Assembly: GCF_028368995.1 (NCBI RefSeq)
Contig: NZ_JAQNDL010000005.1
Coordinates: 1-64,000 of the forward strand
Origin: Nannocystis bainbridge
GTDB lineage: Bacteria > Myxococcota_A > Polyangia > Nannocystales > Nannocystaceae
DNA length: 64,000 nucleotides
Direction: 5' to 3'
Every line of letters begins with the position of its first letter. The first letter of the stretch is position 1. Made by a program: the position numbers and the translations under genes. Below the pieces are notes generated by a model. It was not told where the DNA came from and did not search any database. It was given only the letters and a program-made list of their open reading frames with translations. Positions 19,978-27,891 of the stretch are shown in pieces.

Positions 19978-21924
19978 ATGAGCCAGGCCCCGAAGGACAT
20001 GTCCGAACGCGCAGCCCAGGCCGCCCCGCGGGTCACCCGCCTCGTGCGGGCTGCCTGCCGGCGCGAGCGGATCGCCGACGCCGCCGCCCTGCTGACGCGG
20101 GTCGCCTTGCCGCTCGGCTGCGCCCTCGCGGCCGTCGCCCTGGTGGCGTCCCGCAGGCTCGACGCGCCCGCCTGGCTCGCCTGGCTCGGCCTCGTCCCGG
20201 CGGCGGCGGTGCTCGTCTGGGCGGTCGTGCGCCCGGCCCGGCCGCGGCGGGTCGCGCGGCGCATCGACGCTCACTACGGCCTCCACGACCTGATCGGCAA
20301 CGCCCTCGAGTTCGCCGGCAGCAGCGCCTCCGCCGATCTCGCGGCCGCCGACCTGATGGCCCTGCACGTCGCCGACGCCGAGGCGGCCGCGCCGGCGATC
20401 GATCCGCGCCCGGTCGTCCCGCTGCGCCCGCCGGGCCTGCGGGTCCACGACTTCGCCGCGGTCCTCCTGCTCGTGCTGGCCTCGCTGGTCCCGTACCCGC
20501 CGGCGCCCGTCGCCGAGGATCATGCCTCTTCGGACATGTCCGAAGAACCAGCCAAGGCCGCCGCCAAGAAGCCGCCGCCCGACCGCGCCCTGGCCGAGCC
20601 GCTGCGCGAGGACCTGCGCGCGCTCAAGGAGGGCCAGGATCGGGCCGCCGCGCTGGCCGACCGGATGCTGCAGATCCTCGACGCCTACGGGCGCGGCGAG
20701 CTCGATCGCGAGGCCGCGTACGCCCAGCTCGAGCAGCTCGACAAGTCGCTGGCCGACGCCGAGGCCGAGCTCGAGGCGCGCATGGAGGAGGACCCGGCCG
20801 TGCTGGCCGAGGGCGTGCGCCAGCTGGCCGAGGCGCTCAAGCAGGAGGAGATCACGCAGGACGCGGCCGAGGCGCTGGCGCGCGGCGACGGCGACGAGGC
20901 CGAGAAGTCGCTGGCCGACGCCGAGGCCGCGGCCGAGGCCAGCGACGAGGCCGAGGAGTCGCTGCAGCGGGCGATGAAGCAGGCCGAGAAGTCGCTCGGC
21001 AAGGCGGCCGGCGAGAACACCGACACCGCGTCGCAGCTGGCCGAGGCCGAGCGCCGGCTCAAGCGCCAGCAGGAGCAGCCCGCCGCCGATTCGGACGAGC
21101 AGGAGCGCCGGCTCAAGAAGCAGCAGCAGAAGGTCGACGAGCTGCGCCGCCAGCACGAGCGCGAGAAGGCCGCCCAGCGCAAGCTCGACGAGCTGCGCCG
21201 CCAGGCCAACGACGCCCAGAAGGGCCAGCAGGGCTCGCAGCAGAAGAAGCGCGCGCTCGAGCAGCTGCGCCGCGGGGCCGGCGACGCCGCCCGCAAGGCC
21301 TCACAGGCGCGCCGCCTCGGCCAGGCCCGCGACGACCTCGAGGAGGCCAAGAGCTTCATGCGCCGCGCCGGCCAGGGCGGCGAGCAGGACGACAAGCGCA
21401 AGCAGCAGATGCAGAAGTTCGCCAAGGCCGCCAAGGGCAAGCGCGGCGACAAGAAAGAAGGCCCCACCATGCTGGTCGAGGGCGACGTCGGCGACGGCGA
21501 GCCGTCGATGCAGATGGAAGGCGACGCCGGCGGCGACCCGCAGGACAGCGGCGACGGCGGCAACCCGCAGGACAGCGGCGACTCCGGCGGCGACGGCCAG
21601 GACAGCTCGGGCCAGGACTCGGCCGGCGACGGCCAGGCGATGGGAGACGGCATGGGCCAGGGCTCGGCCGAGGCGCTCGGCGACGCCAGCGGCCTGAAGG
21701 TCAAGCCGAAGGACGTGCGCGTCGATCCCAGGCACGGCAAGGGCACCACCAAGGCGGAGATCATCAAGACCGCCAGCCAGGAGGGCTTCGCCTCGGCGCC
21801 CTACCGCGACATGTACCGCGACTACAAGTCGTTCGCCCAGAGCGCGCTCGACAGCGAGGCCCTGCCCGCCGAGCAGCGCCGCCGCATCAAGCGCTACTTC
21901 CAGATGATCCAGCCGCGCAAGTGA
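19978..21924 (+). CDS. Membrane-anchored coiled-coil protein with G/D/Q-rich tail (DUF4175-like)
   Basis: N-terminal TM helices, long E/K/Q coiled coil, C-terminal PYRDMYRDY..LPAEQRRRIKRYF. Confidence 0.8.
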   Translation: MSQAPKDMSERAAQAAPRVTRLVRAACRRERIADAAALLTRVALPLGCALAAVALVASRRLDAPAWLAWLGLVPAAAVLVWAVVRPARPRRVARRIDAHYGLHDLIGNALEFAGSSASADLAAADLMALHVADAEAAAPAIDPRPVVPLRPPGLRVHDFAAVLLLVLASLVPYPPAPVAEDHASSDMSEEPAKAAAKKPPPDRALAEPLREDLRALKEGQDRAAALADRMLQILDAYGRGELDREAAYAQLEQLDKSLADAEAELEARMEEDPAVLAEGVRQLAEALKQEEITQDAAEALARGDGDEAEKSLADAEAAAEASDEAEESLQRAMKQAEKSLGKAAGENTDTASQLAEAERRLKRQQEQPAADSDEQERRLKKQQQKVDELRRQHEREKAAQRKLDELRRQANDAQKGQQGSQQKKRALEQLRRGAGDAARKASQARRLGQARDDLEEAKSFMRRAGQGGEQDDKRKQQMQKFAKAAKGKRGDKKEGPTMLVEGDVGDGEPSMQMEGDAGGDPQDSGDGGNPQDSGDSGGDGQDSSGQDSAGDGQAMGDGMGQGSAEALGDASGLKVKPKDVRVDPRHGKGTTKAEIIKTASQEGFASAPYRDMYRDYKSFAQSALDSEALPAEQRRRIKRYFQMIQPRK

Positions 21925-21930
21925 GGCGTC

Positions 21931-22000
21931 TGACCTCGAGGGCATGTCGGATGGGGCATGTCGCGCGGGACATGCTCGATCTGACATGTCCTATGGGCCA
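21931..22000. repeat. Array of five 14-bp palindromic units
   Basis: CATG at 21943, 21957, 21971, 21985. Confidence 0.88.
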
Positions 22001-22097: not shown

Positions 22098-23024
22098 CTA
22101 CTTGGCGTCCGCCGCGGTCGTCACCTCGCCGTGCAGATCCTTGAGGAACTGCACGCGGTCGCTCGCGCCGATCCATCGCTCCAGACGCTCTCGCTCGACC
22201 GGCAGCACCAGATCGTGGCTCTCGCTCGAGACGAGCGTCGCCATCGCCCGGAACGGCTGCGTGAAACCGTTCAACGCCACGAACACCCCCAGCCGGCAGC
22301 GGCGATGCTTGCGGTTCATCTTCCCGCGCAGCGAATCGAACTCGCGGCGCGGCACGGGTGAGCTCCAGTGCTTGCACTCGACGAGGAGGTACTGCCCTTC
22401 GTCTCGCCAAAACGGATCGCTCGACTCGATGCGCACGACGAGGTCCATCTCCTCGATGTCGTTGCGGCGGTTGCGACTGAAGACCACGAAGCCCGGCATG
22501 GTGCGAAAGAGCGTGTCGAGCACCTCCTCGAGGAGGGCCCCCTTGCGATTCTTGTCGGTCTCGCGCAGGCACGCGCTCCAGGTGTCTCGCAGCTGCCGAT
22601 CGAGCTCGCCGCGTTCGAGGGCAGCGGCGTCGCGCGCGCGGACGCTCTCCCACGCGCTGCGCAGCTTGATCCGCAGCAGCGCATCGAGCACGGCGTTCTT
22701 CTCGAGATAGTCGTAGGCGCCGAGCTCGAAGGCCCGCTCGACGGCGCGGCTGTCGGCGTATCCGGTCACCACGATGGTCTTGGCCCCGGGCGAGCGCCGA
22801 GAAACCTCCTCCAGCAGATCGAGCCCGCTATCGGGCCCATCAGCGCCACGCAGCCGCTGATCGAGCAGGACCGCCGTCCAGTCGCCCGCGTCGAGCCTCG
22901 CCAGCGCCTCGTCGCGCGTGGCGGCGCTCTCGGCCGAGTAGCCCTCATCCTTGAGGATGCCGAGGTAGATCTGCACGAAGCTCGGATCGTCGTCGACGAT
23001 CAGGATCTTGGGGCTCAGCGTCAT
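22098..23024 (-). CDS. Response-regulator receiver domain fused to Mrr-like PD-(D/E)XK restriction endonuclease
   Basis: REC: IVDDD, LLDQ, VVTGY, YLEK; nuclease: KGALLEE, EMDLVV, VECKHW, GVFVALNGFT. Confidence 0.85.
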   Translation of the reverse strand: MTLSPKILIVDDDPSFVQIYLGILKDEGYSAESAATRDEALARLDAGDWTAVLLDQRLRGADGPDSGLDLLEEVSRRSPGAKTIVVTGYADSRAVERAFELGAYDYLEKNAVLDALLRIKLRSAWESVRARDAAALERGELDRQLRDTWSACLRETDKNRKGALLEEVLDTLFRTMPGFVVFSRNRRNDIEEMDLVVRIESSDPFWRDEGQYLLVECKHWSSPVPRREFDSLRGKMNRKHRRCRLGVFVALNGFTQPFRAMATLVSSESHDLVLPVERERLERWIGASDRVQFLKDLHGEVTTAADAK

Positions 23025-24613
23025 GTCACTCCTTCGAGCGGGATCGGCAAGCGCAGGACGAAGCGCGCGCCTCCGCGTGGGCTCGGCTCACAATGGATCG
23101 AGCCGCGTAACTCGACTTCGATGACCTCGCGGACGAGCGCGAGGCCGTGGCCGCTCCCGCCCGCACGAAACGAGACGCCGTCGGCGAAGATCGCAGCACG
23201 CTGATCGGCCGGCACGCCTGGGCCGTCGTCCTCGACGAGGACGACGAGGCGAGCGCCCGACCTTCCCAGCATCTCGGCCTGGACAAGGATCCGCACCTCG
23301 GCTCCGCCGACCTGACTCGCGTTGCGCAGAAGGTTCAGCACGGCCAGAACGAATCGATCACGTCGACCGCGAAGATAGACGCGCTCGACACCGGCGGCCG
23401 CTTCGAACTCGACAGGATGTCGCAGCGCAGATTGCACGCCCGCGATCGCGTCGCGCAACGCCGCCTCCACCGCGAAGAGCTCGTCACGGCTCGACCCGTG
23501 ACTCGTCATGCGCGCGGTCTCGGTGGCGAAACGGAGCGCTCGCTCGAGCCCACCGGAGATGACGCTCAGGGTCTCGGCATTGTCCGCGACGAACCCCTCC
23601 GAGCCGCCGAGGCGCCGCAACTGTTTCAAGGACAGCTGGACCGGAACCAAGATGTTCCGCAGCTCGTGCGCGACCATTCGCGTGTGCCGCCCCAGCTCCG
23701 CGGCTTCGGACACGGCCGGCGGCCGCCCGTGCAAGGCCTCATGCGCTTCATCGGCGAGGGTCGCCCGCGCGAGCGAGCGCAACGCCTCGCCGGAGGGTTG
23801 GTCGAGCTCGCCGAACAGCTCGACCCCGAGCGGGGTTACCCGACAACGCCAGTCGAAGACGCCATGCTCATCACGACGCTCCTCGACCTCGACCAGCCCT
23901 TCGAGCTCGAGCCGTCTTGTGAAGAAGTCCCACGGCCACGGCGCCGGGGCTCCGTCCTCAAAAAATTCGACCAGCGACTCAGTCAGAGCCTTGGCTCGAC
24001 TCATGCTGACTCTCCATCGATCGTGATCGCCGAGCGCCGATGAGACCTCGAGCGCCAGCAACCACCGGACCGCCTCGCGCCCGCGAAGGCCGAGGAACAC
24101 CTCGCCGGCGGCCAGAAGCTTCACTTCGCCCCGCACCGTCCGCGCGAGCTGGAGCTCGTCGGCATATCGCGAGACCCCGACGCCTCTCAGATCGGTATGT
24201 TCGGCGCGCGCCCTGGCGTCTGCCTCCTGAGCCACCTCCGCCGATCGTCGCCCGCGGATCCCTCCCGACAAGGCATCCCACCTCTTGACGATCTGGTGCC
24301 TGAGCAACACCGACAGCACGGCTCGCTCGAGCAACAGCTCATCCTTGTCCGGCTCGCCGACGAACAGCGCGGCGTCTGCGAGACCCGTGAGCAGACACTC
24401 GACGAGGAGCTCCTTGAATTCGCCGTCCCAGGGACGTAAGGCGTCCTCGAACCACCGAGCTTCACGACCTGCGAGCGACGCCTCCTCGGCCTCGAAGATC
24501 GCGAGGAACCACGCTTCCCGCCGCTCCGGGTCGAGCCACGTGGGAAATCGACGCAGCGTCAGCAAGCCCCGTCGAGCCAGCTCGAGGTGCCTGCGGAGGG
24601 CTTCGACGAACAC
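23021..24613 (-). CDS. Soluble sensor histidine kinase with wHTH-like N-terminal region
   Basis: AHELRN, NLLRNA, EDDGPGV, GSGHGL; no TM segment; ATGA overlap with the downstream gene. Confidence 0.85.
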   Translation of the reverse strand: MFVEALRRHLELARRGLLTLRRFPTWLDPERREAWFLAIFEAEEASLAGREARWFEDALRPWDGEFKELLVECLLTGLADAALFVGEPDKDELLLERAVLSVLLRHQIVKRWDALSGGIRGRRSAEVAQEADARARAEHTDLRGVGVSRYADELQLARTVRGEVKLLAAGEVFLGLRGREAVRWLLALEVSSALGDHDRWRVSMSRAKALTESLVEFFEDGAPAPWPWDFFTRRLELEGLVEVEERRDEHGVFDWRCRVTPLGVELFGELDQPSGEALRSLARATLADEAHEALHGRPPAVSEAAELGRHTRMVAHELRNILVPVQLSLKQLRRLGGSEGFVADNAETLSVISGGLERALRFATETARMTSHGSSRDELFAVEAALRDAIAGVQSALRHPVEFEAAAGVERVYLRGRRDRFVLAVLNLLRNASQVGGAEVRILVQAEMLGRSGARLVVLVEDDGPGVPADQRAAIFADGVSFRAGGSGHGLALVREVIEVELRGSIHCEPSPRGGARFVLRLPIPLEGVT

Positions 24614-24679
24614 TGCGCGAGCCTAGCGTCGAAGCCGAGGACCAGCAACCGCCAGCAGCCTCGGCACTGCGGCCCTACT

Positions 24680-25894
24680 TCAGCCCTCTTCGTCCTCGCG
24701 CAGCAGCGGCGCCAGCTCGGCCGGCAGCACCGGGCGGGCCACCGGTCTCCGGCGGCTGAACACCAGCCGCTCGGCGTGCGCGCGCTCCTGGCGATAGCCG
24801 AACAGGTGGAACACTTGCTTCACCGCCACGCGGGCGACCGCCGGGTCGGCGATGTAGTGGTCGGGCCGCTGCGGGTCGCGCGACACCCCGGGCAGGTACG
24901 GCACCAGCACGTCGAGTCGCAGCGTCCGCAGCGCCGCCGACAGGCGCAGGACGTTGCGCGTCACCGGGCGGGCGATGAAGAAGCCGTCGTCGCCCTGGCC
25001 CTGGTAGCGCGGCAGCATCACCAGCCCGGTCTCGGGCACGCGCAGCGGGCCGCGGCGATCGTCGGCGATGACCTGGCCGCGCTCGACGACCTGGAAGTTG
25101 ACGAAGCCCGGCTTCATCACGAACGGCTCGTCCTCGGGCTGGATGACGTGGCGGTGGCGGATCTCGCACACGGCCGGCATGCCGCCGCTCGCGGCCCCGA
25201 GGCGAGCGCGATGGGCCGCGAGGTCCGGCACGTGACGCGGCTCGAGCGAGCCGGCCGCGACCAGCATCAGCAGCAGCGCCGACTCGTGGAAATCGATCGT
25301 GCGTGGGTCGTCGTGCTGCCCGCCCTCGACCGCCACGCCGACGTGGCCGAGGTCGCACAGGTAACCGAGCATCGAGCCCTCGATGACCTCGTCGAGCCCG
25401 AGCACCACCGGGATCGGCAGCGCCAGCGCCAGCGGTCGGTTGCGCAGCACGTCGGCCATGCACGAAAACGGCGGCGACAGGCTCGACGTGCTGTGCAGGT
25501 CGATGAAGCTGACCGGCCCGCGGCGCAGCAGCGGCAGGAACACGCCGAGCAGCTCGCGCGTCTCCTGGTCCTCCGCCGTCGCCAGCTGGCCCTGGGCGAT
25601 GCGGGCGATGTTCTCGGCGGTCCACTGGCGGTTGAGGTCGCGGTCGACGAACCGGCGGCCCTGGGCCAGCGCGCGCCGGTTGCCGGACACGCCGAGCAGC
25701 TGCCCGCGCAGCGGCACGTCGGTCGCGCGCAGGCGGGCGAGCACGCGCGAGATGGCCGAAAGGCCAGCCGGCTCGTTGCCGTGGAGCGCCCCGATGCACA
25801 CGACCGTCGGGCCGGGGCGCCCGCTGTCGTAGCGCCCGAGCACGCGCGGGTGCGCGCCCGGGTCCGCCGGCGGCGCGCTACTGCTGAGCGTCAC
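24680..25894 (-). CDS. Succinylglutamate desuccinylase/aspartoacylase (M14-like) family protein
   Basis: GALHGNEPAG, DLNR, IDLHS, VEGGQH. Confidence 0.88.
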   Translation of the reverse strand: MTLSSSAPPADPGAHPRVLGRYDSGRPGPTVVCIGALHGNEPAGLSAISRVLARLRATDVPLRGQLLGVSGNRRALAQGRRFVDRDLNRQWTAENIARIAQGQLATAEDQETRELLGVFLPLLRRGPVSFIDLHSTSSLSPPFSCMADVLRNRPLALALPIPVVLGLDEVIEGSMLGYLCDLGHVGVAVEGGQHDDPRTIDFHESALLLMLVAAGSLEPRHVPDLAAHRARLGAASGGMPAVCEIRHRHVIQPEDEPFVMKPGFVNFQVVERGQVIADDRRGPLRVPETGLVMLPRYQGQGDDGFFIARPVTRNVLRLSAALRTLRLDVLVPYLPGVSRDPQRPDHYIADPAVARVAVKQVFHLFGYRQERAHAERLVFSRRRPVARPVLPAELAPLLREDEEG

Positions 25895-27794
25895 GCAGGT
25901 AGCTCTCGAGCAGCTTGCCCGACACGTCGATGAGGTCGCGCTCGGTGATCACCCCGACCAGCTTGTCGCCCTCGACCACCGGCAGGCACGAGATGCCGCG
26001 CTCACGCATCAGCTTCATGACCTCGAGCGTCGGCATCTCCGGCCCGATCGTCAGCGGGTTCTTGACCATCAGCTGCGCCACCGTGGCGTTGTCCTGGGCC
26101 ACGCGGGACCCGCGGGCGACCATGCGGATCAGCGCGCGGTGCGACAGCAGCCCGACCAGCCGGCCCTCCTCGTCCTCGACCAGGATGTGCCGGATCTTCT
26201 TCCAGTCCATGATGTTGGCCGCGAGATCGATGATGTCGCTGCCCTGGACCGTGAAGATGTCGGTCGACATGAACTGGCCGGCCGTCTGGTACGAGTCGCG
26301 CCAGGTCTTCGGCTCGCCCTCGAGCCGCGCCGTCTCCCACGTGTGGACCGGCGCGCCGCTCTTCTGGTTGGCCAGCATCGCCGCCGACAGCGTGCGGTAG
26401 CGGACGTCCGAGGTGCCCTGCTCGCCCATCGCGTGCAGCGAGTTGAGCATCCACTGCGCGCCGGTGGTGCCCTTGCGGACCCGCTCCTCGATCGTGCCGA
26501 GATAGCGGTCGATGTCGCTGCCGTCGACCTTGACGTGCTGCAGGCCCCAGCGGGCCGTCTGCAGCAGCTCGCCGAGGATCAGATCCTGCGCCGACATCGT
26601 CTTGCCCTTCCACGTCTGCTGGGCCTTGAGGCCGTCGCGCGCGGCGTTGAAGAAGTTGGCCTTGGCGTCCTCGAAGGACATGTCCTTGAAGACAGGCCGC
26701 TCGTCCTCGGCCAGCGCGGCCATCAGGCCGAAGAAGAACGCCGCGTTGGCGACCTCGTCGAGGACTGTCGGGCCCGACGGCAGCACCCGGTTCTCGATGC
26801 GAAGGTGGGCCTTGTCGCCGCTGAGGCCGTAGCAGGCGCGGTTCCAGCGGTACACGGTGCCGTTGTGCAGGCGCAGCGCGCCGAACTGCGGGATCCCGCC
26901 GCGGTCGATCACCTGCATCGGGTCCTCGTCGATCGCGTTGGCGATGAGGATGCGGAAGCGGGCGATGTCCTCGCGGAAGATCTCGAGCACGCCCTGCTGG
27001 ATCCACCCGTCGCCGAAGTGCACGCGCGGGCGGGCAGCGCGGTCGACCCGGACCTGCGAGCGGGTGTCGACCGAGCGCTCGAACAGCGCGATTCGGGTCT
27101 CGTGCCACAGGCGGTGCTTGAGCAGCACCGGCGAGTTGACGGCCGCGGCGAGGATCGGCCCGGTGACCGCCTGGGCGAGGTTGTAGAACTTGGCGAACTC
27201 GCTCGGGCTGACCTGGAAGTGGACCTGGAAGCTGGTGTTGCACGACTCGAGCATCACGTTGTCGTGCGTCGTCTCGAGCTCCTCGATGCCGCGGATCAGG
27301 ACGTGGAAGTCGTCGCCGCGGAGCCGCCGCAGGGTGCGGTTCAGCTCGAGGTAGCGCGGCTTGGGCGTCATGTTGTCGAGCCCGAGGTCGGCCTTGCGCA
27401 GGGTCGGCAGGATGCCGGTCAGCAGGATGTCGGCGCCGCAGTGGCGCGCGGCGTCGCGGGCGACCCCGACGACCTCGTTGAGCTCGTCCTCCATGCGGCG
27501 CAGGCAGGACGCGTTGAACACCTGCGGCGAGAGGTTGGCCTCGAGGTTGAAGCGCGCGAGCTCGGTGGTGAGGCGCGGGTCCTGGGCGCGCTCGAGCACT
27601 TCCATCACCACGGAGGCGGGACGCAGGCTGCGGTCGACGAGGAACATCTCCTGCTCGGCGCCGACCCGGCGCACGCCGGTCTCGAAGCGATCGGTCTCGA
27701 GCAGCCGCTCGAGCGCGACCACGTCGTCGAGGAGCTTCTTCATGAAATTGCGCAGCTGGTCGTCGTCGGACGTGGCGATGTTTTGTTCACCCAT
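25878..27794 (-). CDS. Glutamate-cysteine ligase family (GCS2) protein with C-terminal CBS pair
   Basis: GAEQEMFLVD, ELARFNLE, ESCNTSFQVH, HNGTVYRWNR, HLRIENR; CBS domains at the C-terminus. Confidence 0.9.
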   Translation of the reverse strand: MGEQNIATSDDDQLRNFMKKLLDDVVALERLLETDRFETGVRRVGAEQEMFLVDRSLRPASVVMEVLERAQDPRLTTELARFNLEANLSPQVFNASCLRRMEDELNEVVGVARDAARHCGADILLTGILPTLRKADLGLDNMTPKPRYLELNRTLRRLRGDDFHVLIRGIEELETTHDNVMLESCNTSFQVHFQVSPSEFAKFYNLAQAVTGPILAAAVNSPVLLKHRLWHETRIALFERSVDTRSQVRVDRAARPRVHFGDGWIQQGVLEIFREDIARFRILIANAIDEDPMQVIDRGGIPQFGALRLHNGTVYRWNRACYGLSGDKAHLRIENRVLPSGPTVLDEVANAAFFFGLMAALAEDERPVFKDMSFEDAKANFFNAARDGLKAQQTWKGKTMSAQDLILGELLQTARWGLQHVKVDGSDIDRYLGTIEERVRKGTTGAQWMLNSLHAMGEQGTSDVRYRTLSAAMLANQKSGAPVHTWETARLEGEPKTWRDSYQTAGQFMSTDIFTVQGSDIIDLAANIMDWKKIRHILVEDEEGRLVGLLSHRALIRMVARGSRVAQDNATVAQLMVKNPLTIGPEMPTLEVMKLMRERGISCLPVVEGDKLVGVITERDLIDVSGKLLESYLRDAQQ

Positions 27795-27891
27795 GGGCGT
27801 ATCCGGCCGCAGGGTATCGCGGGACGGATCGGCGGCCAAATTCGGATGAGGGGTCCCGGAGCCCGCAGCGCAGAGCGCGCGCAGAACACTG

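Follow-up and report, generated by a model that had tools for sequence, protein, structure and literature searches.

Most response regulators have a DNA-binding domain or a second-messenger domain as their output. Type IV restriction endonucleases of the Mrr type carry an Mrr_cat domain with an E...D...ExK signature, and the E. coli Mrr is modification-dependent. In the literature that was reached, control of a nuclease by His-Asp phosphotransfer appears only as a prediction. In type 1F Shedu, predicted with 39 instances, a receiver-DUF4263 nuclease lies next to a histidine kinase, and activation by phosphorylation and dimerisation is proposed (10.1101/2023.08.10.552793). Ambrosia, whose anti-phage activity has been validated, depends on a histidine kinase, a nuclease and a receiver with a phospho-Asp; it comprises five genes, and the role proposed for its REC-wHTH protein is transcriptional control of a methylase and an HNH nuclease, both separate from the receiver (10.1101/2025.09.30.679545). 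In HisKA kinases, another study assigns kinase activity to the acidic residue of the HExxN motif and phosphatase activity to its Asn (PMC3510030). Receivers or kinases in conflict systems are mentioned in passages of six further reports, where the present pair does not appear (PMC7159879, PMC8195603, PMC13092281, 10.64898/2026.10.19.760177, PMC12839542, PMC9503650). A figure legend of DefensePredictor lists HATPase and REC among untested candidates.

The DNA analysed here, called the window, is a stretch of 64,000 nucleotides from Nannocystis bainbridge (contig NZ_JAQNDL010000005.1); the genome carrying it is labelled G000, and G001-G010, L001 and similar labels denote other genomes and loci. 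It contains a cassette formed by a cognate kinase and receiver-nuclease pair with intact catalytic residues (Table 1). The cassette belongs to a real two-gene family of myxobacteria, apparently undescribed, the receiver-nuclease-plus-kinase design having already been predicted in type 1F Shedu. Neither a description of the family nor a response regulator with a killing nuclease as its output was found by a full-text search that had most subscription papers and supplements outside its scope. Judged from sequence, the cassette is probably a phosphorylation-activated nuclease used in conflict, most plausibly in abortive defence.

Table 1. Positions of the cassette and its flanks in the window
Feature	Position	Strand	Details
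Soluble histidine kinase gene	23021..24613	-	530 aa, GTG start
N-terminal sensor region, kinase aa 1-295	23729..24613	-	
Kinase core, DHp + CA	23024..23728	-	H316 codon starts at 23668; HExxN kinase/phosphatase motif
REC-Mrr gene	22098..23024	-	308 aa; receiver aa 1-120, long linker helix, Mrr_cat PD-(D/E)XK domain
Putative -10 hexamer TAGGCT	24620..24625	-	6 nt 5' of kinase GTG
Upstream flank: AstE/AspA-family host gene, outside cassette	24680..25894	-	Pfam; syntenic in cassette-less genomes
Downstream flank: convergent 648-aa host gene, outside cassette	19978..21924	+	Without Pfam match

The kinase and REC-Mrr reading frames are joined by an ATGA overlap at 23021-23024, and both the coordinates and the coupling given in the initial annotation were verified. 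The distinctive part of each gene is single-copy in G000, and the nearest relatives fit a Nannocystis-like host. Upstream, the AstE/AspA-family gene is coupled to one for a GCS2-like protein that ends in two CBS domains, and this arrangement (24680-27839, Pfam) forms a conserved flank. Downstream, the 648-aa protein is charged and helical over a long middle part and has a tail rich in Gly and Asp, and DNA matches to its gene were present in 10/10 congeners searched. The gene is followed at 21940-21995 by a cluster of short CATG-centred repeats that relatives have at the same site; three octamers of this kind, which may be REP-like, have 3815 occurrences in G000.

In the REC-Mrr protein, Pfam recognizes Response_reg at residues 7-117 (E 8.5e-19) and Mrr_cat at residues 164-264 (E 5.1e-9, above the cut-off); for the latter domain a feature search gave a score of 0.92 with 182 shared features. 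The window protein was aligned with 119 of its 120 listed matches, one partial sequence being left out. D55, T87, K109, K161, G162, E166, D194, E216, K218 and W220 are invariant in 120/120 of these proteins, and the acidic pocket of the receiver is formed by D11 in 118/120 and D12 in 119/120. The intact receiver motifs and the Mrr_cat-type output proposed at the outset, the latter with E166, D194, E216 and K218, are both borne out by these data. The spacing between K109 and E166 is 57 residues in 103/120 homologues. In the structure model, the linker helix spans residues 113-154, and the secondary structure fits the alpha-beta-beta-beta-alpha-beta core of the restriction-endonuclease fold. In same-site pairs, dN of the nuclease is far under dS (e.g., 0.023 vs 0.42).

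An ordinary two-component regulator, in which a restriction-endonuclease-fold domain binds DNA or a partner without cutting, would agree with the structural searches: both, run with the full-length model, returned receivers that filled the lists (best match DgcR, 6zxc_A, Z 21.0, rmsd 1.3, 129 aligned), and a profile search of PDB sequences with the nuclease-domain alignment gave 0 matches. NCBIfam holds no family for the sensor or the nuclease domain. The four catalytic positions are invariant, as is rarely the case in a binding-only domain, and such a regulator is scarcely credible here. Gated type IV restriction has also to be weighed, in which phosphorylation would license the cutting of modified incoming DNA only, with no host death. 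The Mrr_cat domain is shared with such enzymes and one cassette copy adjoins a type III R-M system. Against this, the N-terminal DNA-binding domain of Mrr is absent and its place at residues 7-117 is taken by the receiver (Pfam and structural match), no DNA-recognition domain is left, and the net charge of the nuclease domain is only -4 to +3; this explanation is considered very improbable.

In the kinase, HATPase_c covers residues 418-524 (E 2e-17) and HisKA is recognized weakly at 308-358 (E 0.017). The H, N, G1 and G2 boxes are intact, as annotated initially: H316, E317, N320, N431, D462, G464, G466, G488 and G490 are invariant in 56/56 kinases, and F476 of the F box is found in 55/56. The AlphaFold2 model has a mean pLDDT of 88.3. 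Its core matches the ThkA catalytic domain (3a0t_A, Z 21.8, rmsd 2.4, 149 aligned), and the matches of the whole-kinase model were restricted to that core. The highest 19-residue hydropathy is 1.57 in the window kinase and exceeds 1.6 in only 1/56 kinases. A transmembrane sensor is ruled out on this basis, in agreement with the soluble kinase described originally.

In the sensor model, a helical bundle is accompanied by a short hairpin, the conserved WLL block and, at about residues 204-270, a helix-hairpin-helix unit. Among 49 sensor regions no Pfam family was common to more than one, and every row of the Atlas feature search fell below the naming bar. When the sensor profile was compared with PDB, four of the top five matches were PadR/MarR proteins, weakly (E 0.006-0.87), over profile positions 200-284. 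Two winged-helix segments had been proposed for this region; the second receives weak support from these profile matches and the first receives none. A winged-helix-like unit at about residues 204-270 is plausible, and the topology of the model fits it. An hhalign comparison of the sensor halves gave 8% probability over 13 columns and did not show a tandem wHTH repeat. The sensor region is net acidic in 56/56 kinases (-3 to -16), within the normal range of G000 (median -4, quartiles -11 to 0). Because the hypervariable wing is acidic, being net positive in only 2/49, DNA binding or sensing by the sensor is unsupported, and the suggestion that the pair senses foreign DNA receives no support. 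Homologues of the 295-residue region form 366 clusters at 50% identity. Of the 149 top representatives, 122 extend to the end of the kinase core, and the five longer exceptions that were inspected contained no other fusion of the sensor.

Among 8000 scored candidates, 687 REC-Mrr homologues were recognized. A scan of GTDB genomes gave 123 relatives, the best 80 of which were kept for locus analysis; within these best 80 of 123, all full-length matches belong to Myxococcota. A kinase core lies directly upstream of REC-Mrr in 64/80 loci, and of the other 16, six are relatives with the nuclease only, two lie at contig edges, three have a full REC-Mrr gene and no kinase, and five are remnants. ATGA or GTGA is found at the kinase stop in 59/63 loci. 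The nuclease-only relatives have other N-terminal modules fused to the nuclease, a variety expected of a modular conflict effector. In one of them (L076:5335-8507) the module joined to the related Mrr nuclease is HEPN_Toprim_N, and a DUF4062 gene lies upstream; this pair is a candidate for a separate conflict module.

The nuclease domain is present in 3/10 congeners and 4/24 family members; in two other family samples the sensor was found in 26/151 and 5/151 genomes, and a phylum sample including G000 had it in 4/151. Synteny of the flanks at the window site extends to six genomes: the cassette is carried by G000 and G005, the gap is empty in G003, and other genes occupy it in G001, G007 and G010. 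Core-gene status is ruled out by the empty site, the other cargo and the patchy presence, and the accessory nature of the pair is confirmed. The 65 kinase-bearing loci were grouped by shared neighbours into about 36 sites, a rough count. The cassette lies between convergent genes in 19/37 loci with both flanks, compared with 20% of the gaps in a G000 sample (p 1.5e-5, the loci not being fully independent). In L037:1823-10202, an opposite-strand cassette splits a co-directional operon with genes for an NrtR-like regulator, a PP2C phosphatase, a kinase-like and a nicotinamidase-like protein.

In a REC-Mrr tree built by a quick method, sequences cluster by host family, each family having several lineages (11 changes vs 26.8 shuffled). 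The full cassette is absent from the plasmids, phages and viral contigs that were searched; plasmid matches span the receiver only, viral contigs gave three nuclease-only matches, and phages gave no match at all. On the sequences compared, the cassette is best described as an old myxobacterial family moving within the group and not as a recent import. The horizontal acquisition proposed in the initial annotation holds, then, for movement among myxobacteria; import from a foreign source does not fit a tree that largely follows host family.

Decay is frequent. Frameshifted, truncated or partial copies make up 20/72 myxobacterial non-edge loci, a count in which L044 and L045 may only be divergent and to which assembly errors may add some; several truncated kinases retain the catalytic core. 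An IS4-family transposase takes the place of the kinase gene at L028:6967-7740, where REC-Mrr is intact. An in-frame fusion joins REC-Mrr to peptide-deformylase and PALP domains at L047:4662-7166; a chance deletion or a misassembly is the probable cause. Seven Polyangium loci retain the cassette at a single site, and no sensor exchange is apparent among them.

The nearest neighbours, with Pfam assignments for 126/139, are mostly housekeeping genes (prmA/rsmE, nucleotidyltransferase, carB, RF3, class II tRNA synthetase), and no third gene is common across the cassette sites. PADLOC was applied to 352 proteins encoded no farther than about 8 kb from the 36 sites. Complete known systems were present at 2/36, namely a type III R-M system (L014:702-7183) and Menshen (NsnABC, L019:10188-13706); matches to generic Ser/Thr kinases, sigma54 activators, adenylate cyclase and HAD hydrolase and a 65-residue methylase match were not scored as defence. 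The control of 148 proteins in 12 regions, six taken at random from G000 and six hand-picked from four other genomes, contained no multi-gene system (0/12) and one single-gene candidate. A lack of association with defence islands had been named beforehand as a refuting outcome, and enrichment was not found (2/36 sites vs 0/12, Fisher p = 1). PADLOC models gave no strong match to the nuclease domain (best 2.7e-6, PDC-S02). The SduA match to REC-Mrr spans residues 4-99 only, i.e., the receiver, and SduA models matched 0/44 nuclease domains.

These surroundings bear on a stress or development switch, in which the kinase would sense the state of the host and the nuclease would lyse a subpopulation or trim DNA independently of any invader. 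Loci seen only in large-genome myxobacteria, housekeeping neighbours, the long retention at a single site in Polyangium and a tree that largely tracks host families are all compatible with it. A cue from the host, however, would not require so many sensor clusters or the sensor swaps described below, and the cassette was not found in most relatives searched and decays often. Such a switch is regarded as unlikely.

The kinase has the lowest GC3 among the genes called in the window (0.795), compared with 0.893 for REC-Mrr and 0.956-0.968 for the adjacent genes. Among 298 genes on 400 kb of G000 contig C4, 0.7% are as low as the kinase and 9.7% as low as REC-Mrr, so that the richness in A/T-ending codons claimed for both genes is clear for the first and mild for the second. 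The TAGGCT box annotated before the kinase gene is present, and its position is conserved across the cassette family; a consensus promoter scan did not list the site. TAnnnT occurs 5-9 nt 5' of the kinase start in 15/38 loci, one of 39 having been dropped for want of a start, compared with 28/245 neighbouring genes; in other intervals of the same upstream sequences it occurs in 0-2 of 38. TTGAC stands at the -35 position in 10/38 cassette loci vs 4/245 neighbouring genes, and Shine-Dalgarno motifs precede the kinase start in 6/38 vs 68/245. The pattern had been noticed before testing, and some of the loci are related. The -10 position of TAnnnT points to a leaderless cassette transcript from a housekeeping, sigma70-type promoter. 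When a terminal mobility motif was sought, promoter motifs alone stood out upstream of the cassette; downstream ends were inspected by eye. Among G000 genes with an upstream gap, on the first 400 kb of contig C4, 37/227 have TAnnnT at the same distance from the start, which suggests that leaderless mRNAs may be common in this myxobacterium. The cassette is probably a self-contained two-gene switch that is expressed constitutively.

Divergence is unevenly distributed along the cassette. Between the window and L001, which share the site, identity falls from 96% in REC-Mrr (dS 0.42) to 78% in the kinase core (dS 0.98) and 55% in the sensor (dS 1.31), and dS of the flanking genes is 0.11-0.29. At fourfold sites, the sensor is more divergent than REC-Mrr in 8/16 same-site pairs from six site groups (Fisher p <= 0.01); the other 8/16, including all four Polyangium pairs, have no significant excess. 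An 11-taxon REC-Mrr tree unites the window and L001 with support of 96/95. The sensor tree rejects this clade (p-AU 0.0135) and the kinase-core tree does not (0.195). These pairs are non-independent, and five metagenome kinases in the tree test were assigned to their REC-Mrr partners by inference, from contigs of equal length; moreover, synonymous divergence of the kinase may be inflated because its GC3 and codon bias are lower than those of REC-Mrr. With these qualifications, what is new here is a 295-residue sensor without a Pfam family that appears to have been swapped between cassettes, the nuclease remaining constant. A constant effector with a replaceable input resembles the shuffling of target-recognition domains in R-M systems, and the exchange of such an input suggests a role in conflict, for which it is the main positive argument.

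Gene coupling, together with the correlation of kinase and REC-Mrr tree distances (Spearman 0.75), points to phosphotransfer between the two proteins. At rest, the kinase would act through its HExxN motif as a phosphatase and keep D55 unphosphorylated. The sensor would bind a cytoplasmic cue, an invader protein or a protein-nucleic-acid structure being likelier than naked DNA, and phosphate would then pass from H316 to D55. The linker helix of fixed length might rearrange or dimerise the nuclease domains, which could thereby cut DNA. The outcome would most likely be abortive infection, which may be advantageous in clonal multicellular swarms, and recombination would replace sensor alleles as invaders change.

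An inverted logic has been considered as well: in a selfish addiction cassette, the kinase would hold the nuclease off and the receiver in its phosphorylated state, and the nuclease would be released once the cassette was lost. Its own promoter, the tight gene coupling, the spread to many neutral sites with the excess of convergent gaps (19/37 vs 20% expected) and the catalytic core retained in several truncated kinases could all serve such an element. Nevertheless, REC-Mrr is still intact at L021, where the kinase carries two frameshifts and the genome has no further full-length sensor, and the whole kinase is lost at L028, L038 and L051, though each of those genomes has a second cassette. 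A variable sensor of 295 residues would be unnecessary for addiction, and the phosphatase Asn is invariant; addiction is accordingly held to be improbable. The broken copies, L021 among them, lean to activation by phosphorylation; they do not cleanly reveal the toxic state, because most have also lost the promoter or the coupling.

For the phosphorylation-activated nuclease, defence is the most likely role on the grounds of sensor swapping, turnover and nuclease output. The missing island enrichment, the housekeeping neighbours, the weak PADLOC match of the nuclease and the retention in Polyangium without sensor exchange count against it. A more specific picture, which falls somewhat short of an even chance, is that of myxobacterial immune receptors derived from a two-component relay, in which an exchanged sensor recognizes invader proteins and Asp phosphorylation triggers a suicide DNase, encoded outside islands and transcribed without a leader. 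If this were true, a defence or cell-death system would have been missed by island-based mining in a multicellular group whose immunity has been little studied. The family offers hundreds of natural minimal two-gene variants in which the effector is constant and the unannotated sensor swappable, so that nuclease control by His-Asp phosphotransfer becomes directly testable; re-wiring of the pair as a nuclease gated by phosphorylation is conceivable.

Compared with the described systems, the cassette shares with HisKA systems of enzymatic output (DgcR; CrdS, PMC3510030) the HExxN motif, the CA domain and the order of receiver, long helix and enzyme; unlike them, its output is a nuclease, and it is accessory, mobile between sites and equipped with an exchangeable sensor. 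With the Mrr type IV enzymes it has in common the Mrr_cat domain and the E...D...ExK residues, but a receiver replaces the N-terminal DNA-binding domain and the nuclease is paired with a kinase. In contrast to Ambrosia, it consists of two genes, the nuclease is the receiver's own output, and no cluster of XRE regulator, adenine methylase and HNH genes is shared across its sites. The closest resemblance in design is with type 1F Shedu, in which a receiver also stands N-terminal to a PD-(D/E)XK-type nuclease beside a kinase, and the logic of activation predicted for it is the same as that proposed here. The cassette differs from it in having an Mrr_cat nuclease instead of DUF4263 and a kinase whose sensor is soluble and specific to the family.
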